From Armatimonadota bacterium (GTDB lineage Bacteria; Armatimonadota; Zipacnadia; Zipacnadales; UBA5352): a stretch of DNA of 47,482 bases. Positions 10,406 to 46,479 of the stretch are shown here, piece after piece (within the stretch, counting starts at the first letter, position 1; each line of letters begins with the position of its first letter). The notes beneath the pieces are model-generated. The model was not told the origin of the DNA. It saw only the letters and a program-made list of their open reading frames with translations, and made no database searches. Where the stretch lies: assembly GCA_046540615.1 (NCBI GenBank), contig JBKHFA010000002.1:1-47482 (forward strand), written 5' to 3'. The position numbers and the translations under genes were made by a program.

Positions 10406-10410
10406 CGCCG

Positions 10411-13421: not shown

Positions 13422-13565
13422 GATGGCACCTCAACGCGTCTGCATGGGGCGGACGACGGCGTTAAATGCGCCATGCGGAGGTCGGAATCCTTCCGAACAC
13501 CGGTACGGGGCAGGTCTTCATGCGGGTTCAGCGAACTGAGACGCAACACTCCGGAGGTGACCGCA

Positions 13566-26753: not shown

Positions 26754-26814
26754 TTTTCCCTCTTCACTTTTCCCTCTTCACTTTTCCCTCTTCACTTTTC
26801 CCTCTTCACTTCAC
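26754..26814. repeat. perfect 14-nt x4 tandem repeat (TTTTCCCTCTTCAC; GTGAAGAGGGAAAA on the coding strand) plus a partial unit
   Basis: Units at 26754-67, 26768-81, 26782-95 and 26796-809, then TTCAC. The array spans the stop codon (26792-94) of the NuoEF-like gene and most of the spacer before the next gene. Confidence 0.9.
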
Positions 26815-31422: not shown

Positions 31423-32723
31423 TCTTTATTCCGAGTCGGGTACACCGACTTCCCGGCCTTCCGTGCCGTCTCGATGGGGCAGGAGGCGTAACACCGCCCG
31501 CATGACACGCAGCGCGCCGGGTCAACCTCGTAGTGCTCGCGTGTGCGCCGGAGGGAGACGGCGATGAGCTGCCAGGCCACGACCAGTCCGATGAACCCGC
31601 CCAGCACTGTGCTCCCCGTGTTGAACTGTCGCTTAATTTCGGCGGCTTCGCGGTAGAGCCCTCCCGTCGGCAGCCCCAGTTCATAGAACGCTTCGGACTG
31701 CTCCGTGGTGCCCTCAACGATGCCCTGCTCCTCAACAAAAACGCGCGCGGCGGTCTGCACCGTCTGATTCATCCCCGCAAGGTAGTCGCTGCCCATCTGC
31801 CCGAGCCATGCGCCGAGGCCGATCATGACCGGGAATGACAGAATGATCGCAGCCAACGTCCAGCGCCCGGTGGTCGGCGGCTTCGAGCGATCCTCGCTGG
31901 TCGGCGGCCGGATCGCGTTGTAAGGACAGGCATCCGCGCAGAGATGACAGTTGATGCACTGATCCCCACCGAGCTGCACGTGCCAGGCCGACAGCGGCGC
32001 CGTCACCCGGAAGAGCGCCGCCAGCGGGCAGAGATAGCGGCAGTAAGGCCGGCCGATGAAGACACCGATCAGCAGCAGGATGCCGCCTGCGATCAAGACG
32101 TGCGTAGGTCCGCCGAGCCTGAAGAACGCGACGTAAGGATCGTAGCGGCAGATCAAAAAACCGCTGTCCGTCCAGGCAAAGAGCGCGGCCACGCCGAGAT
32201 ACACGAAGGGAATGATCCCCAGCGGCCGCTCCAGCCACTCGGGGACGCGAAGCGGCTTGATCAGCGTCATCTCCTGCACCGCGCCCAGCGGACAGACGGC
32301 CGCGCAGAAGACGCGCCCGAATGCAAGCGCAACCAGCAGCGGCAGCAGGAAGAACAATCCCACCGTCACCGGGAGCGTGTACTCAGCCGGTCCGATCGCC
32401 AGCGCGACGTTTTGAATTGCGCCGATCGCGCAGATGCAGCCCTCGCGGTAGAAGCCGAAGTAAAGCAATGCGAAGGCGACCAGCAGGAATATGTACGTAC
32501 GCTTTTTCACGCGCAATGAAAGCCATGCCGCCATCCCCAGCGTCGCCGCCAGCACCGCGACGTCGATCCACTCAAAGAGCGTGTCGCGCGGAGACGGCGT
32601 GCGCACCTCGGGGAAGCGGTAGTCGAAGCTGAACTCAGGCGGAGGAAAGCGCTCGGCGGCAAGCGCCACCACGGGCGCCAGCACCGCAATCACAAGCAGC
32701 AGCGGCAGCACGCGGCGAATCAT
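31419..32723 (-). CDS. NapH/MauN/NosH-like integral-membrane polyferredoxin
   Basis: Multiple TM helices with membrane-proximal CxxxCP motifs ([26 protein letters not shown]) plus CICAIGA. Two 4Fe-4S motifs ([28 protein letters not shown]) are separated by two further hydrophobic helices. ATGA overlaps occur at both ends. Confidence 0.75.
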
Positions 32724-33487
32724 ATCTGCGTTGTCCCCGGCTCGTTCGTCGACGTGTCCCCCTGACCGGGGGCGGGGAAGTCCGAATCCGGAGCGCCCTC
32801 AGAGGGCGACGCCTGATCGGGGCCGGCAGACTCTGGCGGCGATGCCGGCTCAGACGAGGGCTGCTGATATGCCCCATCGGTTGGACGAGACGCCGACTCG
32901 GCGCTCTCCTCTTCGTCATCCTCCTCCGCGAGCTTAATGCTGGGGAGCAGGTAGGGCTCATCCGCCGGCACGCGTACAAACGCGTCCGCCGGACACTGCG
33001 CGGCGATGGCGCACTCGTTGCAGTCAACGCAATAATTGTGACGTACCTGCATCACCAGTGAGCCGTTGCCGTATTGACGACAGCCCTCGACGCAGATCGC
33101 GCAACCTATGCACTTCGGCTCGTCGATCAGGTACTCGTAGTAAGGCTCCTCCACGAAGTTGCGTATGATCGCGTCGGTAGGGCAGCGCATGTTCTCCGCG
33201 GTCTCTTCGTCCCCGGGACGCACTTCGGCGAAGAATCCGAAGCAGAAGTCGCAGAAGCCGCAGATCTCCACGTCGTGCACACACCGCGCCGCCGAGGGTG
33301 TCAGAACGCAGGCGGTCGCGCAGTTGCCGCAGGCAATGCACTTCTCCGGATCGATCTGCCAGACGAGGTCGTCGCGTTCGCCTTTCGCGGCCACCGCGCC
33401 GACGCCGACGCCCAGTCCAAGAGCGCCGACCGCCCTCGCGACGGCCCGGAGAAAGCTTCTGCGGTCCATGCCGCGTTCGTCAGTCAT
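32720..33487 (-). CDS. TAT-exported NapG/MauM/NosG-like poly-[4Fe-4S] ferredoxin with low-complexity acidic tail
   Basis: Twin-arginine signal MDRRSFLRAVARAVGALGLGVGVGAVA. Four cluster motifs: CIACGNCATAC, CGFCDFC...CPTDAI, CIGCAICVEGC, CVDCNECAIAAQCPADAF. 69-aa Ser/Pro/Glu/Asp tail. Confidence 0.8.
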   Translation of the reverse strand: MTDERGMDRRSFLRAVARAVGALGLGVGVGAVAAKGERDDLVWQIDPEKCIACGNCATACVLTPSAARCVHDVEICGFCDFCFGFFAEVRPGDEETAENMRCPTDAIIRNFVEEPYYEYLIDEPKCIGCAICVEGCRQYGNGSLVMQVRHNYCVDCNECAIAAQCPADAFVRVPADEPYLLPSIKLAEEDDEEESAESASRPTDGAYQQPSSEPASPPESAGPDQASPSEGAPDSDFPAPGQGDTSTNEPGTTQI

Positions 33488-33732
33488 CAGCTACTCAGCG
33501 GCTCCTCACCGGTCGCCGGATAGGTCTCAGTGTCCGACTTCGGCCGTCTCTGCAGACGAACAATCCGTGCTTCAGATTCCTCGCAATCATCAAGCTCGGG
33601 ACATCCGCGGCAGGCGCCGTTGGTCCAGCACGGCTTCCCCGAGCCGAACGCGAGCCAGCCGGTGCCGCCGGCGAGCAACACTCCCGCGATCCCGCGCGCG
33701 GCGGATTTCAGAAAGTCGCGTCGGTCGCTCAT
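33487..33732 (-). CDS. 81-aa TAT-signal, Cys-rich small protein (novel; hidden inside the 178-aa track ORF)
   Basis: MSDRRDFLKSAARGIAGVLLAGGTGWLAFGSGKPCWTNGACRGCPELDDCEESE... has a twin-arginine motif plus an h-region, then C-x5-C-x2-C-x5-C. ATG 33732 overlaps the upstream TGA (ATGA). Its own TGA overlaps the next ATG (TGATG). The upstream 97 codons of the track ORF are Arg-rich and overlap the NHL gene. Confidence 0.6.
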   Translation of the reverse strand: MSDRRDFLKSAARGIAGVLLAGGTGWLAFGSGKPCWTNGACRGCPELDDCEESEARIVRLQRRPKSDTETYPATGEEPLSS

Positions 33733-34712
33733 CTGTCTCCGGCCTCCTGCGCCGTCTCTTCGTAGATGCGAACGATGTCTCGGTGGGGATCGAGCACCGC
33801 GACGCGCCCGGATGGATCGATCGCGAGGTCGATCCCTACGCTGCTCCTCGCGAGCTTCCCGGGCGGCACGACCACCGAGAGCAATTCTCCGTCCGTGGAA
33901 TACACCTTCACTCGGGGAAGGCCCTTTTCTGAGGTGACCACGCGCCCGTCGGGCAGCACGGCGATGTCCGTCGGATTGCAGCAGCCGCCGAAGCCCTCGA
34001 CGTCGTTGCCGACTCGCCTCCACGAGTTCACGAGCGCGCCGTCCGTCCGGGAGTGTATCTGCACCGCAAGCCGTCCCGGGTTGGACAGCCAGAGGTTGCC
34101 GTCAGGACCGGTCGCCACGTCAAGGTGGGGGCTGGGGATGGAAAGCGCGGGGATTCCCCGCTCCGGATCCATCCCGGCAAACTCGCCGAGCAGGTTCCCG
34201 GTGCCGTCATAACGCAGGATCCTCCGGCTGCCCGCGTCTGCGACGAATCGGTCGTCAGGCCACGCCGCGATCGACGTGATCCAGGTGTTCTCCCCCTCGG
34301 GCGCCAGCGTCATGAGCAGTTGCCCCGACTGATCGTACACCTCCACGCTCTGTCGCGTTCCCACGAGGATCGTGCCTTCGGGATCGACAGCCACGCAGGT
34401 CGGCTCCCCGCCGACCGGGAGTTCCCACTCAACCTGCCCGTCGGCCGTCATCTTCCGCACGGCCTCATCGCCGGCGACGTAGAGCGCGCCGGGAGCGTCG
34501 AACGCGATGGCCGTGGCCTCCGCGAAGCCCGGATCGATCTCACCCACCGTCTCCCACGTGAGCAACTGCTCAGGCACGTGGCTGGCTTCCGCCTGCGACG
34601 CGACATTCTCAGCTTTGACCGCCACCGTCTGCTCGATGATCTCCTGCCGCTGGGGACAGCCGCTGAGAGCAGTCGCCAGCAACGCGATCGCCACGAGTGC
34701 GCGTGACGTCAT
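33729..34712 (-). CDS. NHL-repeat six-bladed beta-propeller lipoprotein
   Basis: Lipobox MTSRALVAIALLATALSGC. Six repeats of the NHL type (ATAIAFDAPGALYVAGD, PTCVAVDPEGTILVG, ITSIAAWPDDRFVADAGSRRILRYD, LDVATGPDGNLWLSNPG, PTDIAVLPDGRVVTSEKG..VKVYS, IDLAIDPSGRVAVLDPHRDIVRIYE). Confidence 0.75.
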   Translation of the reverse strand: MTSRALVAIALLATALSGCPQRQEIIEQTVAVKAENVASQAEASHVPEQLLTWETVGEIDPGFAEATAIAFDAPGALYVAGDEAVRKMTADGQVEWELPVGGEPTCVAVDPEGTILVGTRQSVEVYDQSGQLLMTLAPEGENTWITSIAAWPDDRFVADAGSRRILRYDGTGNLLGEFAGMDPERGIPALSIPSPHLDVATGPDGNLWLSNPGRLAVQIHSRTDGALVNSWRRVGNDVEGFGGCCNPTDIAVLPDGRVVTSEKGLPRVKVYSTDGELLSVVVPPGKLARSSVGIDLAIDPSGRVAVLDPHRDIVRIYEETAQEAGDR

Positions 34713-36367
34713 GGGTTTCTCACATCCACGCAGATCATCGTCTCGCGGTCGCGAATGACCAGCTTGCCGTCCGCAAACGCCATCGGCGCCCAGGCATCCG
34801 GGCCGGGAAGCACCTTCGCGCGGGCCATCTCGTTGTACCCGGAGGTTGTCGCCTGCGCCATCACGAGCGTCCCGTCATCGCTGAGCACGTAGATTTTTCC
34901 GTCGGCCATGAGGAAGGGGCCGATCCCGAAGCGCGCGGTGTGTCCGCTCTCCCAGACGCGCTTGCCCTCGAGGTTCAGGCAGACAAGCTGACGGTCCATG
35001 CTCACGCCGAAGAGGTGATTCTGATGGAAGATCGGCGTATGCTGATGGGAGCCGAAGATGTTCTGCGGGATCTTCCACACCTGCGCGGGGGTGCCGCCCT
35101 TCACCGACAGCAGCATGCTGCCCGCGCCGTAGCCGCCGGTGAGGAAGATACGCTCGTTGCCGACGGGCACCGGCGTCGGGACGTTCGCGGTGTTCACGGT
35201 CCAGTTGGGATACTTGAAGACGATCGAGCCGTCGTTCGCGTCGATGCCGACGACGCCGCCGGAAGCCGGATAGACGTAGACTTCCCGCCCGCCGATCTGC
35301 GCGGGCATGATGGAGGCGTGGGTCATCTGCCAGCCGTCCGGGTTCGGCGCCTCCCACTCGACGGTGCCTGAGGCGACATCCACCGCGATCATGAGCGACT
35401 TGCCACCGGGCGCGAGGATGGCCCTGCCGTTGTCGATGATCGGACACTGCCCGGCGTACCAACTTGGGATCTTCGTGTTGTATGTCTGCTTGAGATCCAC
35501 CTGCCAGACCACGTCGCCGCTGTCGGCGCGCGCGCAGGTTACATGGCCCATCGGACCGAGGGCAACGACGTAGCCGCCGGCGACGGCGGGGACGGTGCGG
35601 GAGATTCCGTGGTTATCCTTGATCTGCACCGCGTACGACTGCCGCCAGATCTCACTACCATCCGCAAGCGACAGGCAGCGCAGGGTGTCCTCGCGGGCCT
35701 TTTGATCGTAGTCGAGCACGTACACGCGGCCGTTGGCGATCGCCGCGCCTGCGTGGCCCGGTCCGAGCATGTCCTTCGACCAGACCTTGCGCGGGCCGTC
35801 GCTCGGCCAGCTTGAGGCGAGACCGGACGCCTCCTGCGCGATGTTGTCGTAGCCTGAGCCACGGAAGTTCGGCCACGATCCTCCTCCACCGCCTGAAGGT
35901 GGCGCCGAGGCGGATTGCGCGCTTTCGCCGCCTGTCTGAGCGGGAGTGGAGGGCTGTGAGGGTGGGGCCGCCTGTGATGGCTGACCGTCAGCGGTCTCGG
36001 GTGATTCTGCGTCGCCCTCGGAGGCATCGGTCGCGTTCTCTTCGACTGCAGGCGGATCGTCGTTGGAAAGCTCTTCGCTGTCGGGCCTGTCGGGAAGCAC
36101 TTCGCCGGGGCGCGGCTCAACGTCAACCGGGCGGGAGTCCCCGAGCACCCACATCCCGAGCAGGAATGCGCCGATCAGCGCCACGAGGATCGGAATCGCG
36201 ATCGCGAGAATGCGCTTCGTGCGGTCACTGTGCCGAGGAGCGGGCGCCGGCCCCTCCGGTTCCTCATCGGAAGATGGCGGATCGGGCTGATTCACGGTCG
36301 AGGGCACGCGGTCGTTGGGGAGTCGATCGCCTGTGCTCTTGCCGCCGCTCTCCATGCTTCCCCTCAC
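34709..36367 (-). CDS. membrane-anchored PQQ-like beta-propeller protein (first gene of the operon)
   Basis: Single TM (ILAIAIPILVALIGAFLLGMWVL), an ~87-aa acidic/Pro-rich linker, then SWPNFRGSGYDN and propeller blades. C-terminal WAPMAFADGKLVIRDRETMICVDV. Start is GTG 36367, or ATG 36355 preceded by GAGGGG. Confidence 0.8.
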   Translation of the reverse strand: MRGSMESGGKSTGDRLPNDRVPSTVNQPDPPSSDEEPEGPAPAPRHSDRTKRILAIAIPILVALIGAFLLGMWVLGDSRPVDVEPRPGEVLPDRPDSEELSNDDPPAVEENATDASEGDAESPETADGQPSQAAPPSQPSTPAQTGGESAQSASAPPSGGGGGSWPNFRGSGYDNIAQEASGLASSWPSDGPRKVWSKDMLGPGHAGAAIANGRVYVLDYDQKAREDTLRCLSLADGSEIWRQSYAVQIKDNHGISRTVPAVAGGYVVALGPMGHVTCARADSGDVVWQVDLKQTYNTKIPSWYAGQCPIIDNGRAILAPGGKSLMIAVDVASGTVEWEAPNPDGWQMTHASIMPAQIGGREVYVYPASGGVVGIDANDGSIVFKYPNWTVNTANVPTPVPVGNERIFLTGGYGAGSMLLSVKGGTPAQVWKIPQNIFGSHQHTPIFHQNHLFGVSMDRQLVCLNLEGKRVWESGHTARFGIGPFLMADGKIYVLSDDGTLVMAQATTSGYNEMARAKVLPGPDAWAPMAFADGKLVIRDRETMICVDVRNP

Positions 36368-36372
36368 AGTGG

Positions 36373-36401
36373 TTGAAAGTTGTCCCGCGTGAGCATAGTA
36401 T
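36373..36401 (+). promoter_or_regulatory. candidate sigma70-like promoter for the plus-strand terpenoid/radical-SAM cluster
   Basis: TTGAAA (36373-78), a 17-nt spacer, then TAGTAT (36396-401), in the AT-richest part of the 250-bp divergent intergenic region. Whether this consensus applies in the organism is unknown. Confidence 0.3.
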
Positions 36402-36617
36402 TGTGCGTATCATGCCGAGTCAAGCATCTGAGGCCTCGTCAGGACCCGGTGGCGTCAGATTCCTCATACTGTCTCCGACGCCTGCCGAAACGTTTTCGTT
36501 CACCGAGTCTCTGAACAAATACTGTCGGGTCGGCGTCCGCGGGCATGAGCAGGTCGTTGCGATGAGACGTTTCCTCGCGGCGCTGAGGCTGGACAGGGGC
36601 GCCTCCCGCCGGGTATT

Positions 36618-37520
36618 GTGAGGCATGATGCTCTGTCAGATTCGACTGATAGTCGTGGTGTGCGGGGTGAGTTGTCCGTGGTTGACGGTCCCTGGGTGTT
36701 GATCTCCAGCCATCTCCACTTTGACGACGCGTGTACCCGCTTCGAGGATGAACTCGCGCGACGCCTCGCAGCGTCCGGCTTGTGCGTGATCGTTGCACCC
36801 CACCTTTACCATCTCCCGCATCGCAGTGAGGTCTGGTCGGAGATTGCGCAGATTCGAGGAGCACTCGCCGTCGCGGGATGGCTCAATCCCCGGCCGATGG
36901 AATGTCTGCTTCGGGAGTGCGCCGACCGTGAGATCGACCTCGCAGTTGACCTCGGCGAGGTTGACGACGCTGAAGCCGCCGCCGCGGCCATCGTGGACGC
37001 GCTGGGTCCTGCCGAGGGCGTCGGTGACGTACGCGAGCTTCAGGCGGAGTTGGCCGAGCGATGGTACCCGGTCCTTGACCGCACCCGCTGCACCTCCTGC
37101 TTTCACTGCCTGCAGTTCTGCCTCTTCGGCGTCTATGAGACAGAGGATCGGCAGGTCGTGGCGGCGCGTCCCGACAACTGCAAGGACGGCTGTCCTGCGT
37201 GCGCGCGCGTCTGCCCCGAGGGCGCGATCATCTTCCCCCTGTCCGACGAACCGGCCGTCGCCGGGGCGCCGGGGACGCTGATGGCGCCTGACGCCCCCGC
37301 GCGGCGGATGTACTACGTGCGCACCGGCAGACCCTGCCCCGTCTGCGGCGAAGTTGCCGAGGCCGGGGAGATGACGGAGTCGGCGACCGGGACCACCTGC
37401 GAGGAGTGCGGACGCCCGCGTGAAGAAGCGGCGCCCCCCGCCGGACCCTCGGCCGTGCATCAGGATATTGATGAGTTGATCGACGCGCTTGACGCTCTTG
37501 CGGGGAGTGCCCGCGAGTGA
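36618..37520 (+). CDS. 4Fe-4S dicluster ferredoxin-domain protein with C-terminal Cys4 ribbon
   Basis: RCTSCFHCLQFCLFGVYE...NCKDGCPACARVCPEGAI (two cluster motifs), then CPVCGEV...CEECGRP. The N-terminal ~150 aa are unassigned. Start uncertain (GTG 36618, 36660, 36678 or TTG 36672). Confidence 0.7.
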   Translation: MRHDALSDSTDSRGVRGELSVVDGPWVLISSHLHFDDACTRFEDELARRLAASGLCVIVAPHLYHLPHRSEVWSEIAQIRGALAVAGWLNPRPMECLLRECADREIDLAVDLGEVDDAEAAAAAIVDALGPAEGVGDVRELQAELAERWYPVLDRTRCTSCFHCLQFCLFGVYETEDRQVVAARPDNCKDGCPACARVCPEGAIIFPLSDEPAVAGAPGTLMAPDAPARRMYYVRTGRPCPVCGEVAEAGEMTESATGTTCEECGRPREEAAPPAGPSAVHQDIDELIDALDALAGSARE

Positions 37521-39010
37521 ATACTTCCACCGGGGTCCCCGTGGTCATGACGGCCGATCGCACGCTGATGGCCGATCATCGCACTGTGTTCGGCGGGATG
37601 ATCGCGGCCAGTCAGACTACGACTGTGCCCTGGCCGCTGATGGACCATCTGCTTGCGCCGCGACCACGCCTCCCCATCGCGCCACTGGGCCTGCGGCGGA
37701 TCGAGGCCTCGCTGCTGGCGGACGGATTCGAAGCGGACGAGGTAGCGGTGGTTGAGGCCGAGCGGCTGGAGTCGGTCGTTGGCCCGGAGACGCGCATCAT
37801 TGCCGTCAGCGCAGGCGAGGCATGCGGACTCGGCATGAACTCGACCACGATGACGGCGATCACTGGCGGAGAGATCTATCCCCGCCGACTCGTAGGCGAC
37901 CTCATGCAGCGTATCCGCGATCTGCGCTCGGTGTCACCGAGCGCGAAAGTCATCCTTGGCGGGCCCGGGGCGTGGCAGCTTGTCGCCGATGATGACCTGC
38001 GCGCCAGGCTCGGGGTCGATCACGTGGTCTTCGGGCAGGCTGAGGGGAATGTGGCGGAGGTCTTCGGTGGCGTCGTCAGCGGCGAGGGGTTCCCGGTGGT
38101 GATTGAGGGCGCGCCGGTGGCGGCAAGCGCGATCCCTGCCATCCGTGGCCTCTCGGCGATGGGCGTGGTGGAGCTGTCGCGCGGCTGCGGGCTCGGCTGT
38201 GAGTACTGCGTGATGGGGCGCGAGAGGATGACGCACCTTCCCGAGGAGACGATCCTCGCGGATGTGCGGACAAACGTGGGGGCCGGTCTGTCCAGCATCG
38301 CTGCGATCAGCGAGGACATGCTGCGCTACGGCGGTGACGGTGTGCGGCCCAGCCCCGAGCGCCTGCTCGGCCTGCTCAGGGAGATGCGGCGGGTCGAGGG
38401 CCTCGATCTCATTCAGACGGACCACGCGAACGTGATGTCAGTCGCCGGATGGTCGGACGAGCAGCTTCGGGATCTGCGGACGCTGATGGTGGGGGAGACG
38501 GGGTCACGCCACCCGTGGATGAACCTTGGGGTGGAGTCGGCATCGGGGGAATTGCTTGCGAGGAGCGGCTCAGCGAAGCTCGGAGGCGTCCCGTCGGCAG
38601 AGTGGGGGGAGTTCGCGGCCGAGCAGCTTCGCCGCCTGGTACGCGCCGGCTTCATGCCGATGGCCAGCCTGATGCTGCGTCTCCCGGGCGAGACCGGCGC
38701 AGATGTGCAGCGGACGCTCGACTGGGTCGAGGGCTTCGCGGGTGAGCCTCTGATGATCTTCCCGATGCTTTACGCGCCGATCGACGGCAGTCCGCCGCCG
38801 ACGCGGAATGACCTCACGCGCGCTCACTGGCGCCTGATCCAGCGTTGCTACGACTTCAACTTCCGCGAGGTGCCACGGATGTTCCTCGACGGGCAGACGG
38901 CCGCGGGAGTGCCGGTGGGGCGGCGACTGGCGCTGCAGGCGCTGGGATTCGGGCAGGTCGCACTGTGGAGCGGGTTATTTGCATGGCGGGAGTGGCAGGC
39001 GGAAAGATGA
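37517..39010 (+). CDS. B12-binding-domain radical SAM protein
   Basis: Rossmann-like N-terminal half (IIAVSAGEACGLG...KVILGGPGAW), then VELSRGCGLGCEYCVMG (CxxxCxxC). GTGA overlap with the ferredoxin gene. 497 aa. Confidence 0.8.
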   Translation: MNTSTGVPVVMTADRTLMADHRTVFGGMIAASQTTTVPWPLMDHLLAPRPRLPIAPLGLRRIEASLLADGFEADEVAVVEAERLESVVGPETRIIAVSAGEACGLGMNSTTMTAITGGEIYPRRLVGDLMQRIRDLRSVSPSAKVILGGPGAWQLVADDDLRARLGVDHVVFGQAEGNVAEVFGGVVSGEGFPVVIEGAPVAASAIPAIRGLSAMGVVELSRGCGLGCEYCVMGRERMTHLPEETILADVRTNVGAGLSSIAAISEDMLRYGGDGVRPSPERLLGLLREMRRVEGLDLIQTDHANVMSVAGWSDEQLRDLRTLMVGETGSRHPWMNLGVESASGELLARSGSAKLGGVPSAEWGEFAAEQLRRLVRAGFMPMASLMLRLPGETGADVQRTLDWVEGFAGEPLMIFPMLYAPIDGSPPPTRNDLTRAHWRLIQRCYDFNFREVPRMFLDGQTAAGVPVGRRLALQALGFGQVALWSGLFAWREWQAER

Positions 39011-40827
39011 GACTTGAACGCGATCGTCTTGATGATGCAATGCGAAATGCCCGTGAGACGCTGCTGTCGATGCGCGCGGAGGACGACTGGTGGGAGGGAC
39101 ATTTGTCCTCGTCGGCGGTGGCAACCGCGACGTCCGCGATTGCGCTGCAGCGCGCGGGCGTGGAGGACGATCGCCCGCTGGTCGAGCAGGCGGTCGCGTG
39201 GCTCGTGGCGGATCAGAATGAGGATGGTGGCTGGGGTGACAGCCCCGGCAGCCCGAGCAACATCGCGGCCACCGTCCTGAGCATCGCGGCACTGACGGTC
39301 GCGGAGATGCCGCACCCCGAGGTGCTCGAGCAGGCGCGAGCGTGGATCGAGGAGAGCGTGGGCGGAGGGGACGTCGTGGCCGCGATCAAGCACCGCTACG
39401 GCGACGATCGCACCTTTCAGTCGCCGATTCTCGCGGCCTGCGCACTCGCGGGACTGGTGGAGTGGCGGGAGGTCCCGACGCTGCCCTTCGAGCTTGCGGC
39501 GATGCCCCGGGGATGGCACGCGCTGCTGAGGCTGCAGGTCGTGAGCTACGGCCTCCCGGCGCTGATCTCGGTGGGCGCGCTGATTTACATGAAACGTGGC
39601 GGGGATACGATGCTGCGGAGCATTCTGCGGATGGCGACGGTCGGTCGCGCCCTCCGGATGCTCCCCGACCTGCAGCCGGCCAGCGGGGGCTTCCTTGAAG
39701 CCGCGCCGCTGACGGCGTTCGTTGCGATGAGTCTCACCGAGGTGGTGGGGCCGGAGCACGTCGTGGTGGAAGGCTGTCTTGAGTTTCTCCGGGACACGAT
39801 TCGCGACGATGGAAGCTGGCCGATCGACACGAATCTTTCCGTCTGGGTGACGACGAACGCTCTGATGGCGCTGAGGCATTCGGGCGGGATGCCGCCGGAG
39901 ATCGACGAGAGCGCTCACGCCTGGCTGCGCAAGCAGCAGATGCGGCATCCGCATCCTTTTACGAACGCCGATCCGGGTGGCTGGCCGTGGACGCATCTGC
40001 CCGGTGGCGTGCCTGACGCCGATGACACGGCGGGGGCGGTGCTGGAGATGGCGGCCGGCGGGTCCTTCGGGGCCGCGCTGGACGGCGCGGTGTGGCTCAA
40101 CGGGCTGCAGAATGCCGATGCGGGCTGGCCGACGTTTTGTCGCGGGTGGGGCAGGCTGCCCTTTGACCGCAGTTCACCGGATGTGACCGCGCATGCGGTG
40201 CGAGCAACGCGGGCGGTGCTGGACATGCCGGACGCGGACGCCGGCGATCGCGGCTACCTCGAGCGCCTGCTCGTGAAGAGCATGGACGCGTCAATCGGAC
40301 GCGGCTTCGGCTACCTTGCCGCGGCGCAGCGGGATGATGGCTCATGGGTGCCGCTGTGGTTCGGCGATCAGCGGGTCGTCTCCGAGGCCAACCCCGTGCT
40401 CGGCACGGCGCGCGTGCTTGCCGCCTTCGGCGACTGCGACCGGATGGATGATCCGCACGCGGAGGCAGGAGTGAAGTACCTGCTGCGCGCACAGAACGAT
40501 GACGGCGGATGGGGGGGCGCGGTGGAAGTGGCCAGCACGATCGAGCAGACTGCGCTGGCCGTCAGCGCCCTGTGCCGCTTCACCGGCGATGAAGATGTGA
40601 ATCTCTCGGTCGAAGGCGGTGTTGAGTACCTGCTTGACCGAGTTGACGACGGGACGTGGACCGAGCCTGAGCCGATCGGGCTTTACTTCGCCAGCCTGTG
40701 GTATACTGAGGCGCTCTACCCCATCACCTGGACGATCGAGGCACTCGGACGGGCCCGCGAGGCGCTGAGCGTGGGTGATTCCGGCGGTGACGCCGATGAC
40801 GGTGACGAGGCGCAGTCTGTGAGTTGA
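39007..40827 (+). CDS. squalene-hopene-cyclase-like class II terpene cyclase
   Basis: ATGA overlap with the radical SAM stop. QW-type repeats (QNEDGGWGD, RDDGSWP, QNADAGWPTF, QRDDGSWVPLWF, QNDDGGWGG). Catalytic DxDDTA motif as GGWPWTHLPGGVPDADDTAGAVLEM (DADDTA at 40015-40032). 606 aa, which is slightly short for SHC. Confidence 0.75.
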   Translation: MRLERDRLDDAMRNARETLLSMRAEDDWWEGHLSSSAVATATSAIALQRAGVEDDRPLVEQAVAWLVADQNEDGGWGDSPGSPSNIAATVLSIAALTVAEMPHPEVLEQARAWIEESVGGGDVVAAIKHRYGDDRTFQSPILAACALAGLVEWREVPTLPFELAAMPRGWHALLRLQVVSYGLPALISVGALIYMKRGGDTMLRSILRMATVGRALRMLPDLQPASGGFLEAAPLTAFVAMSLTEVVGPEHVVVEGCLEFLRDTIRDDGSWPIDTNLSVWVTTNALMALRHSGGMPPEIDESAHAWLRKQQMRHPHPFTNADPGGWPWTHLPGGVPDADDTAGAVLEMAAGGSFGAALDGAVWLNGLQNADAGWPTFCRGWGRLPFDRSSPDVTAHAVRATRAVLDMPDADAGDRGYLERLLVKSMDASIGRGFGYLAAAQRDDGSWVPLWFGDQRVVSEANPVLGTARVLAAFGDCDRMDDPHAEAGVKYLLRAQNDDGGWGGAVEVASTIEQTALAVSALCRFTGDEDVNLSVEGGVEYLLDRVDDGTWTEPEPIGLYFASLWYTEALYPITWTIEALGRAREALSVGDSGGDADDGDEAQSVS

Positions 40828-40909
40828 TCTGACGCACCGCCCTTCGATGCCGGAGTTCGGGGATGGCGGCGAGGGAGCACGTGTTCCGACACCTGGAGGA
40901 CGATGCCCG

Positions 40910-42334
40910 ATGGACCTGCGAGTGTGCCGAAGCATGATGTGCCTGGCTGCGATCGCCGCGCTGCTGTCCGCTTCGTTGTGCGTGGCCGACGACTACGTGG
41001 GCTTTCTCACGGACGGGACGGGCGAGTATCCGGACGCGAATCCGGTGACGACGTGGTCGGCGGAGGAGAACGTCATCTGGAAAACGCAGATGCCCGACGG
41101 GAGCAACTCTCTGCCGGTGATCGTCGGTGAGAGGCTCTTTGTCTGCTCTGAGCCGGCGACCCTGCTGTGCGTTGACACGAGCAGCGGGGAGATCACCTGG
41201 GAGGCGAGCAACGCACCCGCGAACATCGCGCCCGAGGATGAAGTCGCGAATCTCGAGGCGGAGACCGAGGAATACAATCGCCTTCGCGGCGAACTCGGCA
41301 GAGCCGGCCGGGAGATGCGGAATGTCCGCAAGGAGCTGCAGGACGATCAGGACAATGCTGAGTTGAAGCAGAAGTTCGCCGAGCTTCAGGCGCGTCAGAA
41401 AGAGTTGCAGGCGGAGATCAGGCCTTACGAGGACACGTGGTACGTTCGGCCGCCGGCGCACAATTACAACGGATACTCAAGCCCCACTCCGATCACCGAC
41501 GGCCAGCACGTCTGGGTGGTCTTCGGGACGGGAATCGCGGCATGTTACGACGTCGAGGGCAACCGGGTCTGGGCGCGCTTCATCGAAAAGCCGCCGAATT
41601 CGTGGGGAACCTCGAACACTCCGGTGCTGGCAGACGGGAAGCTGATCCTGCACATCGACGCGATGCGGGCGCTCGACCCGCTGACCGGCGAAGAGATCTG
41701 GAGTCGGCCGGAGGCGAGTTGGAACTGGGGCACCTCGTGGGTGCATGAGATCGAGGGCACTCCGTTGATCATCACCTCCAGCGGGGACATCGTCCGCGCG
41801 GCGGACGGCGAGATCGTCGTCAGCCTGCCGAGCAATCTCGCGTGGGGCTCGGGACCAGTGGTCGAGGACGGGGTGCTTTATTACATCGACAGCCAGGGCA
41901 AGAACGCCACGTCAAAGGCGTGGGCGCTTCCTGACACACTCGAGGAGCCCTTCGAGCCGGAGTTGCTGTGGGAGGCTGAGCCGAACAAGAATCGCTACTA
42001 CGCGTCACCGATCATCGAGGACGGGTTGATCTACGCCATCACGCGGCACAATTTTCTCTCATGCATCGACGCCGCGACCGGCGAGATTGTCTACGAGGAA
42101 ACGCTTGATTTCGGCAAGGGCGATGTCTTTGCCAGCATCGTCCTTGCGGGCGACTACCTGATGACCACGCATGAGAACGGGACGACGATCGTCTTCGAGC
42201 CGGGCCGCAAGTACGTCGAGGTTGCGAAGAATCAACTTGGTGACATGGTCCGCAGCACGCCGGTGTTTGACGGCGACAGGATGTACGTTCGCGGATACGA
42301 TGCCCTTTACTGCATCGGCCCGACGGAGGGGTAG
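40910..42334 (+). CDS. secreted PQQ-like beta-propeller protein with inserted coiled coil
   Basis: GGAGGA at 40895-40900 lies 9 nt before ATG 40910. Signal peptide MMCLAAIAALLSASLCVA. Blades (GERLFVCSEPATLLCVDTSSGEITWE, DGKLILHIDAMRALDPLTGEEIW, DGLIYAITRHNFLSCIDAATGEIVY). A ~65-aa heptad-like insert is encoded at 41234-41431. C-terminal STPVFDGDRMYVRGYDALYCIG. Confidence 0.75.
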   Translation: MDLRVCRSMMCLAAIAALLSASLCVADDYVGFLTDGTGEYPDANPVTTWSAEENVIWKTQMPDGSNSLPVIVGERLFVCSEPATLLCVDTSSGEITWEASNAPANIAPEDEVANLEAETEEYNRLRGELGRAGREMRNVRKELQDDQDNAELKQKFAELQARQKELQAEIRPYEDTWYVRPPAHNYNGYSSPTPITDGQHVWVVFGTGIAACYDVEGNRVWARFIEKPPNSWGTSNTPVLADGKLILHIDAMRALDPLTGEEIWSRPEASWNWGTSWVHEIEGTPLIITSSGDIVRAADGEIVVSLPSNLAWGSGPVVEDGVLYYIDSQGKNATSKAWALPDTLEEPFEPELLWEAEPNKNRYYASPIIEDGLIYAITRHNFLSCIDAATGEIVYEETLDFGKGDVFASIVLAGDYLMTTHENGTTIVFEPGRKYVEVAKNQLGDMVRSTPVFDGDRMYVRGYDALYCIGPTEG

Positions 42335-42377
42335 GAGGTCGGCGCACCAGGACCCCCTCGCGAGGAGGCACGCCCGC

Positions 42378-44114
42378 ATGAGCGGACAGCCCGTCCCGGA
42401 GGCCCACGCTCCGGATGAGATCAAGCATGTCCCGCAGGATGCGACGGTCCGGGAGCAGATCCGGAGTGTCGCGGCCGAGGTTGCCTGCGGTATCCCGCGC
42501 GAGGTTGCGCCATCTCGCGAACACCTCCGTGCGCTGGGCGCCGGTGTGCTTGCGCGCCTCGAGCTTTCAGAGAGCTTCCTCGGCTTCGCGATGGTCTGCG
42601 TGAGCAATGCGTTCTGGCGTGAGCAGTTCGAGGCGGTGCCGCCGGGCAGGCGTCTGCTGCTGCTGCCGAAGTGCCTCCGCGACCCCGTCGCCTGCGAGGG
42701 CACCTTTGATTCGATCGGCCTGCACTGCGCGGGCTGCGGCGCGTGCGTCATCGGCGATCTCGTCGCGCAGGCACGCGCGCTTGGGCACTCCGTGATCGTG
42801 GCGGAGGGGACCTCCTCGGTCATCATGAAGGTGCTTGAGGGGGAGGCCGACGCGATCCTCGGGGTGGCGTGCCTCGATTCGCTTGACGAGTCATTCGAGC
42901 CGATCGCCGAACTCGGCGTCGCGAACCAGGCGCTGCCTCTGCTGCGAGATGGCTGTGAGCGCACTGAGGCCGAACCCGATCTGATTGCCGAACTGATGAC
43001 CGCCGCGCGGGACTCGGCCGCTGCGACAACGCGGACGCCGATCCCTCTGCTGCGCGCGGCTCGCGCCATCTTCGAGCGCGATGCTCTCGAAGAGATCCTC
43101 CGGCCGCATGTCAGCGATGGCGCACTGGCCGACGGCGCGGACGCAGATCCGATGCTGCAGACGGAGGCGCTCGGCGTTGAGTGGTTGCGCGGCGGTGGAA
43201 AGCGCCTGAGGCCCTTCGTGACCGTGGCCGCGTGCTGCCTCGGACGGCACGGGCTTGACGCGCTCGCAGCCAGGGCGGATGTTGACGGCATGCTCGGGCG
43301 ATCCCTGTGCGCACTCGGCGTGGCGATCGAGGCGCTGCACAAAGCATCGCTGATCCACGACGACATCGCGGACGGAGATGAGTTCCGCTACGGTCGCGCC
43401 ACGATGCATGCGAGCCACGGAGTCGGTCGCGCGCTGAATGTCGGTGACTGGCTGATCGGTCTCGGCTACCGCCTGATCGCCGCGCAGGCCGACGCTCTCG
43501 GTGACGGGTGTGTCGCGGACGTGCTCGCGCGGCTTTCGAGCGCGCAGCTTGCGCTCAGCCGGGGGCAGGGCGCGGAGCTTGCGTGGGTTGGCCGCGAGGT
43601 GGAGGCGCTGCGCGCGGTCGATGCGCTGCGCATCGGCGCGCTGAAGACCGCGCCCGCGTTCGAGGTGGCGCTTTTCACCGGTCTCCGCGCGTCCGGCGCG
43701 GAGTTCGACGAGGCGCTGATACGCAGGTTCTCGATGTACCTTGGCGAGGCCTACCAGGTGCTCAACGATCTTGAGGACTGGCGGTCGGATCGTTCGAACA
43801 AGGTGGCGCTGGGCCGCGATGTACTCACCGGCCGCCCGACGATTCTGCGCGCCTTCGCGATGGAGGCCGGCGGATGGGATCGACTCGCCGAGGCGGGGCA
43901 GCTTGATAACGCGGAGGAGATCGTGCGGCGGGTCAGGGCGCTTTATGACGACGTCGGCGCTTTCGACCGGGCGCGGGCGCTCGTGGACGGCCTGCGCGAG
44001 CGCTGCCTCGGCCTGGCGGAGGGCGCATCCCCGGAGGCCATCGGCGAACTGCTGTGCTTTCTCACGAAGACGATCCTGCGCGAGCGCAAGGAATCCGAGG
44101 GCATGAGGGGCTGA
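42378..44114 (+). CDS. DUF116 - polyprenyl (trans-isoprenyl) diphosphate synthase fusion protein
   Basis: GAGGAGG lies 9 nt before ATG 42378. N-terminal DUF116-type block RRLLLLPKCLRD..CEG.....GLHCAGCGACVIGDL...GHSVIVAEGTSSVIMKVLEGEADAILGVACLDSL. C-terminal GGKRLRPF...ALHKASLIHDDIADGDEFRYGR (first DDxxD) and GEAYQVLNDLEDW (second motif as NDxxD). The track ORF start at 42171 overlaps the previous gene. Confidence 0.75.
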   Translation: MSGQPVPEAHAPDEIKHVPQDATVREQIRSVAAEVACGIPREVAPSREHLRALGAGVLARLELSESFLGFAMVCVSNAFWREQFEAVPPGRRLLLLPKCLRDPVACEGTFDSIGLHCAGCGACVIGDLVAQARALGHSVIVAEGTSSVIMKVLEGEADAILGVACLDSLDESFEPIAELGVANQALPLLRDGCERTEAEPDLIAELMTAARDSAAATTRTPIPLLRAARAIFERDALEEILRPHVSDGALADGADADPMLQTEALGVEWLRGGGKRLRPFVTVAACCLGRHGLDALAARADVDGMLGRSLCALGVAIEALHKASLIHDDIADGDEFRYGRATMHASHGVGRALNVGDWLIGLGYRLIAAQADALGDGCVADVLARLSSAQLALSRGQGAELAWVGREVEALRAVDALRIGALKTAPAFEVALFTGLRASGAEFDEALIRRFSMYLGEAYQVLNDLEDWRSDRSNKVALGRDVLTGRPTILRAFAMEAGGWDRLAEAGQLDNAEEIVRRVRALYDDVGAFDRARALVDGLRERCLGLAEGASPEAIGELLCFLTKTILRERKESEGMRG

Positions 44115-44117
44115 GTC

Positions 44118-45032
44118 GTGGGATACCTTGATCTGCTCGACGGCATACTTCGCGGCGGCGCGCATGGCCTTGGGGAGAGCTTTGCCGCTGCACAGGCCGC
44201 GTGGATCGAGTGCCGCGAGTTGCCCGACGGCGGCTTCGCGGGCCGCCGCGGCGGCAATGCGGACGTGTATTACACGGATTTCGCCCTGCGCGCGCTGGAC
44301 CTCGTCGCCGGTGAGACGCCCATCTTCGCGACGACCGCGCGGCACCTCCAGTGGACGGCCCGCTCTCCCGCCGACGTCACCGCCGCCTTCAGCCTCCTCA
44401 GTTGCGCCCGAACGCTTCGCCGCCACGACCTCAGCGTTCGCTGTGATCGTCGTTCGGTCGAACGCGCGATCGGTTCACAGGCTCTCCCGGGCGGCGCGTT
44501 CGGGCCTCCCGAGGTGCTCAGCGCGAGCGCCTATCAGACATTCCTCGCGGTCCTCTGCCTGCAGATGCTCGGACAGGACGCTCCCTCCGAGGAGACCTGC
44601 GCGGAGATGGCCGCGCTGCAGCGGGACTCGGGCGGATTCGCCGAGCGCGCTGACGGCGATCGGGCGCAGACGAACGCGACCTCCGCCGCGGTCGCGGTGC
44701 TGCTGATGGGCAACGCGCTCGCGCAGATCGATCTTCCGGCCGTTGCCCGGTTCATCATCGACAGACAGGCCCCTGACGGCGGCCTCTGCGCTCACGCCGA
44801 CGCGACCGGAGGCGACCTTCTCTCGACCTTCACCGGTCTGCTGACACTGGCACTGATCGGCGCGCCGTCGGAGCTTGATCTGCCTGCGCTCGGCCGCTTC
44901 GTGCGCGGCGCGGCGCATGCGGGCGGTGGCTTCGGTGCGCTGCCGGGCGACCCGCAGGCGGATGTCGAGTACACGTTCTACGGCATCGCGACATTCGGCC
45001 TGCTGCGCTCGCTCGTCGAGGGGGCGGGCTGA
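44118..45032 (+). CDS. prenyltransferase / squalene-oxidase repeat (alpha-alpha toroid) protein
   Basis: Five repeats carrying GGF/GGL: LPDGGFAGRRGG, LPGGAFGP, QRDSGGFAER, QAPDGGLCAH, HAGGGFGALPG. This pattern resembles protein-prenyltransferase beta subunits and terpene cyclase domains. No DxDD motif. Confidence 0.65.
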   Translation: MGYLDLLDGILRGGAHGLGESFAAAQAAWIECRELPDGGFAGRRGGNADVYYTDFALRALDLVAGETPIFATTARHLQWTARSPADVTAAFSLLSCARTLRRHDLSVRCDRRSVERAIGSQALPGGAFGPPEVLSASAYQTFLAVLCLQMLGQDAPSEETCAEMAALQRDSGGFAERADGDRAQTNATSAAVAVLLMGNALAQIDLPAVARFIIDRQAPDGGLCAHADATGGDLLSTFTGLLTLALIGAPSELDLPALGRFVRGAAHAGGGFGALPGDPQADVEYTFYGIATFGLLRSLVEGAG

Positions 45033-46312
45033 TGCGGATCTCGCACCTCGCCGCCGGCGCCGCGAACATGTACTGCGGGGCGTGCGCACGCGATGCCGCG
45101 ATGGCGCGAGCTTTGCTCGCGCGTGGACACGAGGTGCAGATCGTGCCGCTCTACACGCCGCTGCGGCTTGATGGCGACGATCTGCCCGTCGCGGATGTGC
45201 AACTTGGGGCATTGAACGCGTATCTGCAGCAGGTCTCCGGTGTGTTCGCGCGCCTTCCGCGACCGCTGGCGCGACTGCTGGACAACGAGCGCCTGCTCCG
45301 CTTCGTCTCGCGCTTCGCGGTGCAGACCGATCCGTCTGTGCTTGGGCCGATGACCGTCTCGGTGCTCGCCGGCGCGGACGGCAGGCAGCAGGCGGAAGTC
45401 GAGCGACTGCTGCAGTTCCTCGAGCACGACGCCCGGCCCGACGTGGTCACGATCACCAACTCGATGCTCTCGGGCGTCGCTCCTCGGATCAAGGAGACGC
45501 TCGGGATCCCCGTGCTCTGCGAGGTCAAGGGCGAGGACGGCTTCATTGAGGCCCTCCCGCCGCCGCATCGGGATGAGGCTGTGGCGCTTGCGCGACGAAA
45601 CGCGCACTCCATCGACCGCTTCATCGCGCCGACGGAGGGCTATGCGAATCAGATGGCGGAGTTCCTCGAGGTGCCACGCGGGCGGATGAAAGTGGTTCGC
45701 ACGATCATCGACGCCGCGGCTCTCGCGAGGAGTGCTCCGCGCCCTCGCGAACCCTTCACCGTCGGCTACGTCTCAGTCATCACGCCGCGCAAGGGTCTGC
45801 ACGTGCTCGTGGACGCGCTGGCGCATTCTGTCGAGGAGGGCCGCGACGTGCGTCTGCGCGTCGCCGGGCAGGTGCTCGACCGAAAGTACTGGCGGGAGAT
45901 TCGGCGTGCGATTCACCGGTGCGGCCTCAGCGAGCAGGTTGACATCCTCGGCGAGGTGACCTTCGCGGAGAAGGTCGCGCTGCTGCATTCGCTGAGCGCG
46001 TTCTGTCAGCCATCGATCAAGCCCGAGGCGCTCGGGACGGCGGCGCTGGAGGCGCAGGCGGCCGGGGTGCCGGTGGTGGCGGCCGATGACGGCGTCTTCC
46101 CGGAGACGTTGGATGTGACGGGCGGCGGAGTGCTCTTCGAGCCCGAGAGCACTGAGGACCTGGCTGTGAGGCTGAGCGAACTGATGGACGATCCGGCGCG
46201 CGCGGATGCGATGGGGGAGAGCGGCGCGCGGGGAGTGGCCGAGCACTTTTCCGCCGAGGCGGCGGCTTCGGCGATGGAGCGGATACTGGCCGACGTGACA
46301 GCCAACGCGTGA
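45032..46312 (+). CDS. GT4-family (GT-B fold) glycosyltransferase
   Basis: ATGA overlap with the upstream gene. C-terminal E-x7-E region CQPSIKPEALGTAALEAQAAGVPVVAADDGVFPETL..GGGVLFEP. Confidence 0.8.
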   Translation: MRISHLAAGAANMYCGACARDAAMARALLARGHEVQIVPLYTPLRLDGDDLPVADVQLGALNAYLQQVSGVFARLPRPLARLLDNERLLRFVSRFAVQTDPSVLGPMTVSVLAGADGRQQAEVERLLQFLEHDARPDVVTITNSMLSGVAPRIKETLGIPVLCEVKGEDGFIEALPPPHRDEAVALARRNAHSIDRFIAPTEGYANQMAEFLEVPRGRMKVVRTIIDAAALARSAPRPREPFTVGYVSVITPRKGLHVLVDALAHSVEEGRDVRLRVAGQVLDRKYWREIRRAIHRCGLSEQVDILGEVTFAEKVALLHSLSAFCQPSIKPEALGTAALEAQAAGVPVVAADDGVFPETLDVTGGGVLFEPESTEDLAVRLSELMDDPARADAMGESGARGVAEHFSAEAAASAMERILADVTANA

Positions 46313-46326
46313 GTGGAGGAACCGAG

Positions 46327-46479
46327 ATGGCGAAGAAGCTCTGCAAGCTGGCGAAGAAGGATGACCTGAAGGCCATCGCCGAGGCCGCGCGCGAGGGCAC
46401 GTACATCTGCAAAAAGTGCGGCCGCACGGCCTCGGACAAGAAGTACCTCTGCAAGTCGGTCGCGGTGGAGGATTTGTAG
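46327..46479 (+). CDS. 50-aa Lys/Cys-rich small protein (below the ORF-track size cutoff)
   Basis: GGAGGA at 46315-46320 lies 6 nt before ATG 46327. Translation: MAKKLCKLAKKDDLKAIAEAAREGTYICKKCGRTASDKKYLCKSVAVEDL, stop TAG 46477-79. It starts 14 nt after the GT4 stop and contains a CxxC knuckle plus two further Cys. Confidence 0.5.
   Translation: MAKKLCKLAKKDDLKAIAEAAREGTYICKKCGRTASDKKYLCKSVAVEDL

Follow-up and report, generated by a model that had tools for sequence, protein, structure and literature searches.

A conserved operon with an SHC-like terpene cyclase and a DUF116-polyprenyl synthase fusion in an Armatimonadota bacterium, a putative source of a cyclic isoprenoid lipid

Hopanoids and sterols are cyclic terpenoids that act as membrane regulators and persist as molecular fossils. 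Specialists regard one clade of proteins resembling squalene-hopene cyclase (SHC) as a major unknown of cyclase evolution. These "SHC-like" proteins were described from planctomycetes by Santana-Molina et al. (2020), whose text reports that they retain the catalytic residues and that their genomic context suggests a non-squalene precursor (PMC7306690). The text of a 2024-25 phylogeny of triterpenoid cyclases labels the clade "unknown function" and places it as the sister of cyclases that use head-to-tail polyprenyl chains (10.1101/2024.10.28.620730). A hopanoid survey that applied strict models found no true SHC in the Pirellulales. Here we describe an operon with a likely member of this clade in a stretch of 47,482 nt, referred to as the window, from an Armatimonadota bacterium (contig JBKHFA010000002.1 of assembly GCA_046540615.1). 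All coordinates are window positions.

The operon consists of eight co-directional open reading frames (ORFs), g1 to g8, on the + strand between positions 36618 and 46479. Its invariant core is a ferredoxin (g1), the cyclase (g3) and a polyprenyl synthase fused to a DUF116 domain (g5). The remaining genes encode a radical S-adenosylmethionine (SAM) enzyme (g2), a beta-propeller (g4), an alpha-alpha toroid (g6), a family 4 glycosyltransferase (GT4; g7) and a mini protein (g8). We propose, with a probability of roughly 0.55, that the enzymes of the operon make a cyclic isoprenoid lipid, which would be neither a hopanoid nor a sterol.

Conservation of the cyclase and synthase pair

Relatives of g5 were sought in one genome per species. 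This gave more than 552 loci, the best 80 of which were used. Occurrence was counted by tblastn of the window proteins against 82 related loci, and 21 DUF116-synthase proteins were aligned for family motifs. The closest relatives are metagenome-assembled genomes (MAGs) labelled Armatimonadota, Armatimonadia or Candidatus Zipacnadia, with identities of up to 91% in the synthase and up to 93% in the cyclase. Most of the best 80 loci are from Planctomycetota (Gemmataceae, Pirellulaceae, Planctomycetaceae, Isosphaera and the cultured Bremerella), and the others are from Armatimonadota, Verrucomicrobiota and Brocadiia.

The cyclase gene lies directly upstream of the synthase gene in 64 of the 82 loci, with a median gap of 179 nt. 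Adjacent pairs come from Armatimonadota, Planctomycetota, Verrucomicrobiota and Brocadiia alike. The closest relatives, in which a propeller gene stands between the two, are among the loci with gaps above 1 kb. Identities of the cyclase and of the synthase to their window counterparts co-vary (r = 0.91). The other genes occur as follows: g1 in 24 loci (upstream of the cyclase, also where g2 is absent), g2 in 18 (in the same operon), g6 in 23 (almost always alongside g2), g7 in 17 and g8 in two. A search seeded with g2 added two homologues of about 52% identity on contigs of 5.3 Mb and 2.8 Mb (loci L083 and L084). The 5.3-Mb contig, with L083, is the chromosome OW818647.1. Both have the order ferredoxin, radical SAM, cyclase, synthase, toroid and GT4 at about 50% identity, and both face the same divergent redox operon as in the window. 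Loci L081 and L082 agree with the operon order as well, and L081 also carries g7.

Clustering of the ORFs across loci separated two versions of the neighbourhood. The first, found in Armatimonadota, Brocadiia, Verrucomicrobiota and some Planctomycetota, has g1-g2-g3-g5-g6, with g7 and g4 optional. The second, found in most Planctomycetia, keeps g1, g3 and g5 and lacks g2 and usually g6. Its accessory genes encode SPASM-like and HemN-like radical SAM proteins, a GcvH-like protein, a thioesterase and a flavoprotein of the halogenase/geranylgeranyl-reductase type. The core usually has one or another radical SAM gene nearby. A conserved protein of about 190 aa follows the synthase directly in 43 of the 82 loci, all of the Planctomycetia type without g2 (for example L050, 11932-12519). 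It matched no Pfam or NCBIfam family, and a chorismate-lyase-like label given to it by eye was dropped, as no model in either collection supports it.

The order recurs in dozens of independent genomes, and the g1-g8 arrangement is therefore far from a chance one. A first-pass annotation, made from the sequence alone, had proposed a terpenoid cluster of eight genes and had suggested a search for conserved synteny. In that search the orthologues proved to be clustered and not scattered in related genomes, and the locus stands as a genuine conserved operon. The membership of eight was too generous: the ferredoxin, cyclase and DUF116-synthase hold, but the other five genes are not all conserved.

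The synthase fusion, the cyclase and the alternatives

Both domains of g5 score well above the Pfam cut-offs (DUF116, PF01976, 97.1 bits against 25; polyprenyl_synt, PF00348, 109 bits against 27), which bears out the fusion seen in the first-pass annotation, and a relative (P0001) has the same length of 578 aa. The AlphaFold2 model of g5 has a pLDDT of 85.6, and its synthase domain matches geranylgeranyl diphosphate synthases with a TM score of 0.82, which confirms the fold of the polyprenyl synthases (PPS). In trans-prenyl synthases the motif GGKRxRP binds the diphosphate of isopentenyl diphosphate (IPP). It is retained in g5, as are the first Asp-rich motif DDIxD (within HDDIAD; 80/80 sequences) and the KT motif. 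For the DDLLD of IspB, the second Asp-rich motif, g5 has NDLxD, and RYG stands in place of RRG; NDxxD and RYG are each invariant in the 80 sequences. The isoprenoid chain-building enzyme that had been predicted therefore stands in its fold and first motif, but NDxxD and RYG make it an atypical one. In chrysanthemyl diphosphate synthase, an enzyme of non-head-to-tail coupling, an Asp-to-Asn change likewise sits in the second motif. Such a change in DDxxD has been reported as significant for that enzyme.

NDxxD and RYG could also mean a different second substrate. In that case g5 would be an all-alpha-helical prenyltransferase acting on a non-IPP acceptor, g3 would cyclise the prenyl part, and g2 and g7 would decorate a secreted natural product, a meroterpenoid or other specialised metabolite, and not a membrane lipid. 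PPS-like enzymes that prenylate aromatic acceptors do exist (PMC12510300), meroterpenoid cyclases such as Lon15 belong to the published sister clade, and an ABC exporter is linked to the operon. We nevertheless consider a meroterpenoid unlikely. The motif that binds the IPP diphosphate is retained in 80 of 80 sequences, and the variants of the neighbourhood share no enzyme that would form an acceptor. Moreover, a synthase that is present in more than 552 species-level genomes and co-diverges with the cyclase points to a core trait rather than a sporadic cluster.

The cyclase g3 matches both SQHop_cyclase domains (N, 91 bits; C, 112 bits; cut-offs about 26). Its PDADDT sequence aligns with D374-D377 of SHC and is conserved in 63 relatives. 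The two domains and the DxDD motif identify it as a class II (beta-gamma) terpene cyclase. Where MAGs of Gemmataceae, Pirellulaceae and Isosphaera have this gene context, their cyclase shares 37-48% identity with g3, and on that identity g3 is a probable member of the SHC-like clade. The best PDB match is SHC, and the relation to the Alicyclobacillus enzyme is distant (E = 2e-18). Residues F601, Y606 and Y612 of SHC are retained, F605 is replaced by Trp and Y609 by Glu. Both replacements fall within PIG.YFA.LWY.E..YP, which is conserved in 63 family members. The pentapeptide DVTAH is identical to residues 447-451 of SHC and may be equivalent to them, although the HMMER alignment did not pair the two.

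With SHC as its best PDB match, with DxDD and several aromatic residues aligned, and with relatives that automatic annotation names squalene-hopene cyclase, g3 could be a fast-evolving SHC in a disguised hopanoid pathway. It would then act on squalene made elsewhere, and g5 would supply farnesyl diphosphate only. This is quite improbable in our judgement. The protein scores far below the curated cut-offs for hopene cyclase (TIGR01507, 114 bits against 431.1) and the squalene/oxidosqualene cyclase subfamily (TIGR01787, 136.4 against 322.7), and equally for oxidosqualene cyclase (TIGR03463, 66.3 against 851) and tetrahymanol synthase (TIGR04277, 38.8 against 500). The Glu at position 609 and the Trp at 605 depart from SHC throughout the family. 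No HpnC/D/E/G/H/I/K-like product was found with Pfam and NCBIfam among the ORFs of the 47-kb window, so that the usual company of shc (hpnC/D/E or sqs, hpnH and hpnG) is missing there. Loci of Pirellulales carry the cyclase and DUF116-synthase pair, yet the strict survey found no SHC in that order. The literature also separates the SHC-like clade from SHC, as far as the text of the two studies goes (PMC7306690; 10.1101/2024.10.28.620730). On curated cut-offs and the gene content of the window a hopanoid locus is rejected. This agrees with the first-pass annotation, which saw no HpnC/D/E- or HpnG/H/I/K-like products and suggested a product other than a standard bacteriohopanepolyol.

That g5 is an ordinary long-chain synthase for quinone side chains, lying beside a cyclase without any pathway meaning, is highly improbable: E. 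coli octaprenyl diphosphate synthase is its best PDB sequence match, small residues (Ala, Ser) precede the first Asp-rich motif at -5/-4 as in medium- and long-chain enzymes, and the gene is very widespread in Planctomycetota, but without coupling one would hardly expect adjacency in 64 of 82 loci over four phyla and co-divergence as well, no canonical elongating synthase in the alignment has the invariant NDxxD and RYG, and synthases for quinone side chains are not marked by a Cys-rich fusion and a co-conserved ferredoxin.

The DUF116 domain has seven invariant Cys residues, including CxxCxxC, in 80 of 80 sequences. A model of this domain by itself (pLDDT 86.5) has three helices and, after them, an alpha/beta domain, and a sequence search against the PDB returned nothing. 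Our search for literature on DUF116 turned up a 2015 archaeal comparative study and an unrelated cluster figure. The prediction by Makarova et al. in the former is of a flavodoxin-like domain for electron transfer; these authors also mention that Pirellula staleyi has the fusion (PMC5898192). The cysteines suggest that the domain may bind a metal cluster and transfer electrons.

Accessory genes and the divergent redox operon

The features of the operon and of its divergent neighbour are given in Table 1, with domain calls from Pfam and NCBIfam profile searches against curated cut-offs. The G+C content of the window is about 66%. ORF coordinates and the junctions as read from the sequence confirm eight co-directional genes with overlaps and short gaps. 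The g1/g2 stop and start overlap in GTGA (37517-37520) and those of g2/g3 in ATGA (39007-39010), g6 and g7 meet in TGATG (45030-45034), and GTGA occupies 46309-46312 at the g7/g8 junction. The other gaps measure 3-44 nt. An ATG at 38983 gives g3 614 aa, which is the length of a relative that is 93% identical (P0241). For g8, 50 aa is likelier than 56 aa because of the GGAGGA box ahead of the ATG at 46327. Three promoter-like hexamer pairs, two on the + strand and one on the - strand, were found in the divergent intergenic region as consensus matches only. Rfam and tRNA scans of the window found no RNA family and no tRNA, and its terminator matches did not exceed those in shuffled sequence.

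Table 1. Genes of the g1-g8 operon and of the divergent operon, with the region between them
Feature	Coordinates	Strand	Basis or remark
PQQ_2 propeller	18656-19855	-	domain match
PQQ_2 propeller	19890-21110	-	domain match
FtsX-type permease, 1096 aa	21107-24397	-	domain match
ATP-binding cassette (ABC) ATPase	24394-25116	-	domain match
HoxU/GltD-like flavoprotein	25043-26668	-	domain match
NuoE-NuoF fusion	26792-29179	-	domain match
PQQ_2 propeller with collagen triple-helix repeat stretch	29188-31422	-	domain match
NapH-like membrane polyferredoxin	31419-32723	-	domain match
Twin-arginine ferredoxin	32720-33487	-	domain match
Twin-arginine Cys protein, 81 aa	33487-33732	-	SDRRDFLK motif, CxxxxxCxxC
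NHL propeller	33729-34712	-	domain match
u1, membrane-anchored PQQ_2 propeller	34709-36367	-	domain match
Divergent intergenic region	36368-36617	.	250 nt between the starts of u1 (36367, -) and g1 (36618, +)
g1, ferredoxin-like, 300 aa	36618-37520	+	Fer4 matches
g2, radical SAM enzyme, 497 aa	37517-39010	+	CGLGCEYC; sub-cut-off Radical_SAM and B12-binding
g3, SHC-like class II (beta-gamma) terpene cyclase with DxDD	38983-40827 (alternative start 39007)	+	SQHop_cyclase_N/_C
g4, secreted PQQ_2/BamB-like beta-propeller	40847-42334	+	Pfam PQQ_2, 80 bits
g5, DUF116-polyprenyl synthase fusion	42378-44114	+	both domains above Pfam cut-offs
g6, prenyltransferase-beta-like alpha-alpha toroid, 304 aa	44118-45032	+	Pfam Prenyltrans, 69.6 bits
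g7, GT4 glycosyltransferase	45032-46312	+	Glycos_transf_1, 108.8 bits; Glyco_trans_4_4
g8, Cys4 mini protein, 50 aa	46327-46479	+	GGAGGA Shine-Dalgarno before ATG

The product of g1 has an N-terminal domain of unknown type, a dicluster of the 2x[4Fe-4S] type and a C-terminal CxxC...CxxC tail. The dicluster is below the Fer4 threshold in Pfam, and its CxxCxxCxxxC and CxxxCxxCxxxCP motifs are conserved. The family alignment of 32 loci keeps RWYPV..D..RC..C..C..FC and CK.GCPAC.R.CP. As g1 accompanies the cyclase and synthase even where g2 is absent, it is not simply the ferredoxin of the radical SAM enzyme. The B12-type radical SAM enzyme with its own ferredoxin of the first-pass annotation is thus kept as a radical SAM enzyme, on its CxxxCxxC motif, while the B12 assignment is marginal and the ferredoxin follows the cyclase and synthase pair.

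In g2 both the Radical_SAM domain (27.2 bits, cut-off 29.5) and the B12-binding domain (22.1 bits, cut-off 32.1) fall short of the Pfam thresholds. Its homologues (about 585, unnamed or generically named) carry PF04055 and in some cases PF02310, and some are labelled B12-binding radical SAM by NCBI. None of the NCBIfam models for HpnH, HpnJ, HpnP and HpnR matched g2 at E <= 0.01, and its hits to other NCBIfam models are all below cut-off, so that no curated radical SAM model is matched. The enzyme appears to belong to an uncharacterised radical SAM family with a divergent N-terminal domain that resembles B12-binding domains, and a B12 function is a marginal call. Radical SAM enzymes of lipids, including Tes, Grs and Cds, have been reviewed (PMC13459092). 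A gene for an ATP:corrinoid adenosyltransferase of the CobA/BtuR type (9878-10519, -, 214 bits) lies about 27 kb from g2, which may be a coincidence or a hint of cobalamin use. In a Thermoguttaceae locus (L082, 2093-3607) a second and clearly B12-binding radical SAM gene stands a few genes upstream of the operon.

The product of g4 has a hydrophobic, signal-like N-terminus, as judged by eye, and with the PQQ_2 match this agrees with the secreted propeller described earlier for the middle of the cluster. The gene is an insertion specific to the Armatimonadota version: no loci but those of the closest relatives (L001-L006, L010 and L081) have it inserted between g3 and g5, and in L007 it is upstream of g1. 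The toroid g6 has the beta subunit of RabGGTase as its best PDB match (E = 6e-12). Of the zinc ligands of that enzyme, which are Asp, Cys and His, the Asp is kept, while Leu aligns with the Cys and Tyr with the His. DxDD is absent from the g6 sequence, just as the first-pass annotation noted along with DDIAD in g5 and DADDTA in g3. By its sequence g6 is not a protein prenyltransferase, nor is it clearly a cyclase. The GT4 assignment of g7 is firm, with a GT4 N-terminal domain at 46.9 bits beside Glycos_transf_1, and the gene is also present in L083 and L084.

The mini Cys protein g8 had been listed as a member of the cluster but is not a conserved one. It lies beside the GT4 gene in L002 and L004 only. 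Neither Pfam nor NCBIfam has a model that matches it; its relatives form a widespread family of Cys4 proteins of about 50 aa (consensus M.KKLCKL.KK...Y.C.KCGR.A....LCKP; about 100 representative clusters at E <= 1e-3). It is probably co-transcribed with the operon. Prenylation of g8 by g6 was considered and rejected, since g6 lacks the Cys and His zinc ligands and g8, from a widespread family, accompanies the cluster in only two of the 82 loci.

The divergent operon encodes redox proteins, propellers and an ABC/FtsX pair. Its 81-aa twin-arginine ORF, also conserved in L001 and L002, overlaps the stop of the NHL gene in ATGA. The same divergent set (the genes from 31419 to 36367) is present in L001, L002, L005, L006, L010, L081, L083 and L084. 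In a Brocadiaceae MAG (L012) the genes form a single co-directional string of ferredoxin, radical SAM, cyclase, synthase, toroid, ABC, FtsX, two propellers, NHL, twin-arginine ferredoxin and NapH-like genes. In a Planctomycetota MAG (L007) the string runs NuoEF, GltD-like, GT4, propeller, ferredoxin, radical SAM, cyclase, synthase, toroid, ABC, FtsX and propeller. The linkage thus outlasts changes of gene order in both genomes, which supports a functional tie between the redox and terpenoid operons, as the first-pass annotation had suggested.

Other genes of the window include one for a DUF3604 protein at the far end of the minus-strand operon (16692-18530, -), one for a 1312-aa protein with GH42 beta-galactosidase-like and CBM_4_9 domains (12624-16562, +), and one for a 204-aa protein with a PqqD-like domain (7008-7622, +) between genes for a metallophosphatase and a universal stress protein.

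The putative pathway and related systems

In the pathway to a cyclic isoprenoid lipid, the synthase domain of g5 would make or couple a prenyl chain, the presumed substrate of g3, with the length of the chain likewise presumed. The DxDD acid of g3 would protonate the terminal double bond, and the chain would be folded into rings. Linked to g5 and g3 there would be a reductive or radical step, with g1 and the Cys-rich DUF116 domain handling its electrons. In this lineage g2, with g6, may modify the carbon skeleton by radical SAM chemistry, and g7 may add a sugar to a presumed lipid acceptor. Export of the product and its handling in the envelope could then fall to the linked ABC/FtsX exporter of the MacB type and to the propellers of the periplasm. 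The NuoEF/GltD-like proteins would form an input module that, with the NapGH-like pair of membrane and periplasmic ferredoxins, may feed electrons to this envelope apparatus.

Several points weigh against such a pathway. No product, substrate or activity has been established for any member of the family. All 80 synthase sequences depart from canonical elongating synthases, which have a second DDxxD and RRG, and g5 may for that reason not simply elongate a chain with IPP. A fold search with the DUF116 model against the PDB gave no significant match (best E 0.027, TM at most 0.25); the weak and non-significant top matches are B12-binding modules. Finally, most Planctomycetia loci have other accessory genes in place of those for the radical SAM enzyme, the toroid and the GT4, and the final product therefore probably differs by lineage.

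A more specific version of the pathway takes up the NDxxD substitution, the same as in chrysanthemyl diphosphate synthases, which is the basis for thinking of non-head-to-tail chemistry. The DUF116 metal domain would allow g5 to join chains or release them reductively, with ferredoxin and without NADPH. The resulting hydrocarbon or polyprenol would be formed by g3 into a new ring system, and the products would be regular cyclic polyprenoids like those put forward as parents of the tricyclic terpanes. This is a long shot. We know of no established biological source of the tricyclic terpanes. Tricyclohexaprenol has been named as their proposed parent. If the idea held, widespread polyprenoids compatible with anaerobic life could be the long-sought origin of orphan biomarkers in sediments, the tricyclic terpanes among them. 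More generally, a new polycyclic lipid made without O2 would be a further class of lipid in the biology of bacterial envelopes, and orphan biomarkers could be reassigned to specific bacterial groups.

Among described systems, the longestin cyclase Lon15 (C40) and AtoE (C25), which cyclise epoxy-polyprenyl chains, belong to the published sister clade of the SHC-like proteins and use all-head-to-tail polyprenyl substrates. Unlike the operon described here, they come from actinomycete secondary-metabolite clusters and depend on an epoxide made with O2. There is no epoxidase in the window, and several hosts of the operon are from anoxic habitats according to their record titles. In the sesquarterpene (C35) pathway of Bacillus (HepS/HepT, YtpB and SqhC) a homologue of SHC also cyclises a long head-to-tail trans-prenyl chain. 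However, SqhC forms a separate clade limited to Bacillota, the cluster has no YtpB-type synthase, and g5 is fused to DUF116 and has NDxxD.

Hopanoid loci resemble the operon in having a DxDD cyclase of the SHC fold, a radical SAM enzyme and a glycosyltransferase in one locus, and a likely membrane-lipid product. They differ in that g3 falls below the SHC models and the window has no squalene synthesis gene, Hpn radical SAM enzyme or nucleosidase. In their place stand the prenyl synthase fusion and the ferredoxin.

The operon's cyclase also resembles the SHC-like clade as it is presented in the text of the two studies. Its members are two-domain cyclases of about 600 aa from bacteria of the Planctomycetes-Verrucomicrobia-Chlamydiae group, including Gemmataceae and Pirellulales. 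They keep the catalytic residues, their genomic context indicates a non-squalene precursor, and their function is undemonstrated. The operon is not categorically new, since the clade and its odd context were flagged there (PMC7306690; 10.1101/2024.10.28.620730). Armatimonadota, however, do not appear among the clade's phyla in the text of these papers, nor does their main text mention the DUF116-synthase, the ferredoxin, the module of radical SAM, toroid and GT4 genes or the redox/ABC operon. A literature search that joined Planctomycetes, SHC, polyprenyl and radical SAM found nothing. Within the literature searched, we did not find the Armatimonadota version, the invariant NDxxD and RYG, a ferredoxin conserved alongside, the module of radical SAM, toroid and GT4 genes, or a link, surviving rearrangement, to an operon for electron input and export. 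To what the clade was known for, the present comparison adds a defined set of genes that travel with an SHC-like cyclase, and with it a concrete minimal set for heterologous expression and knock-outs.

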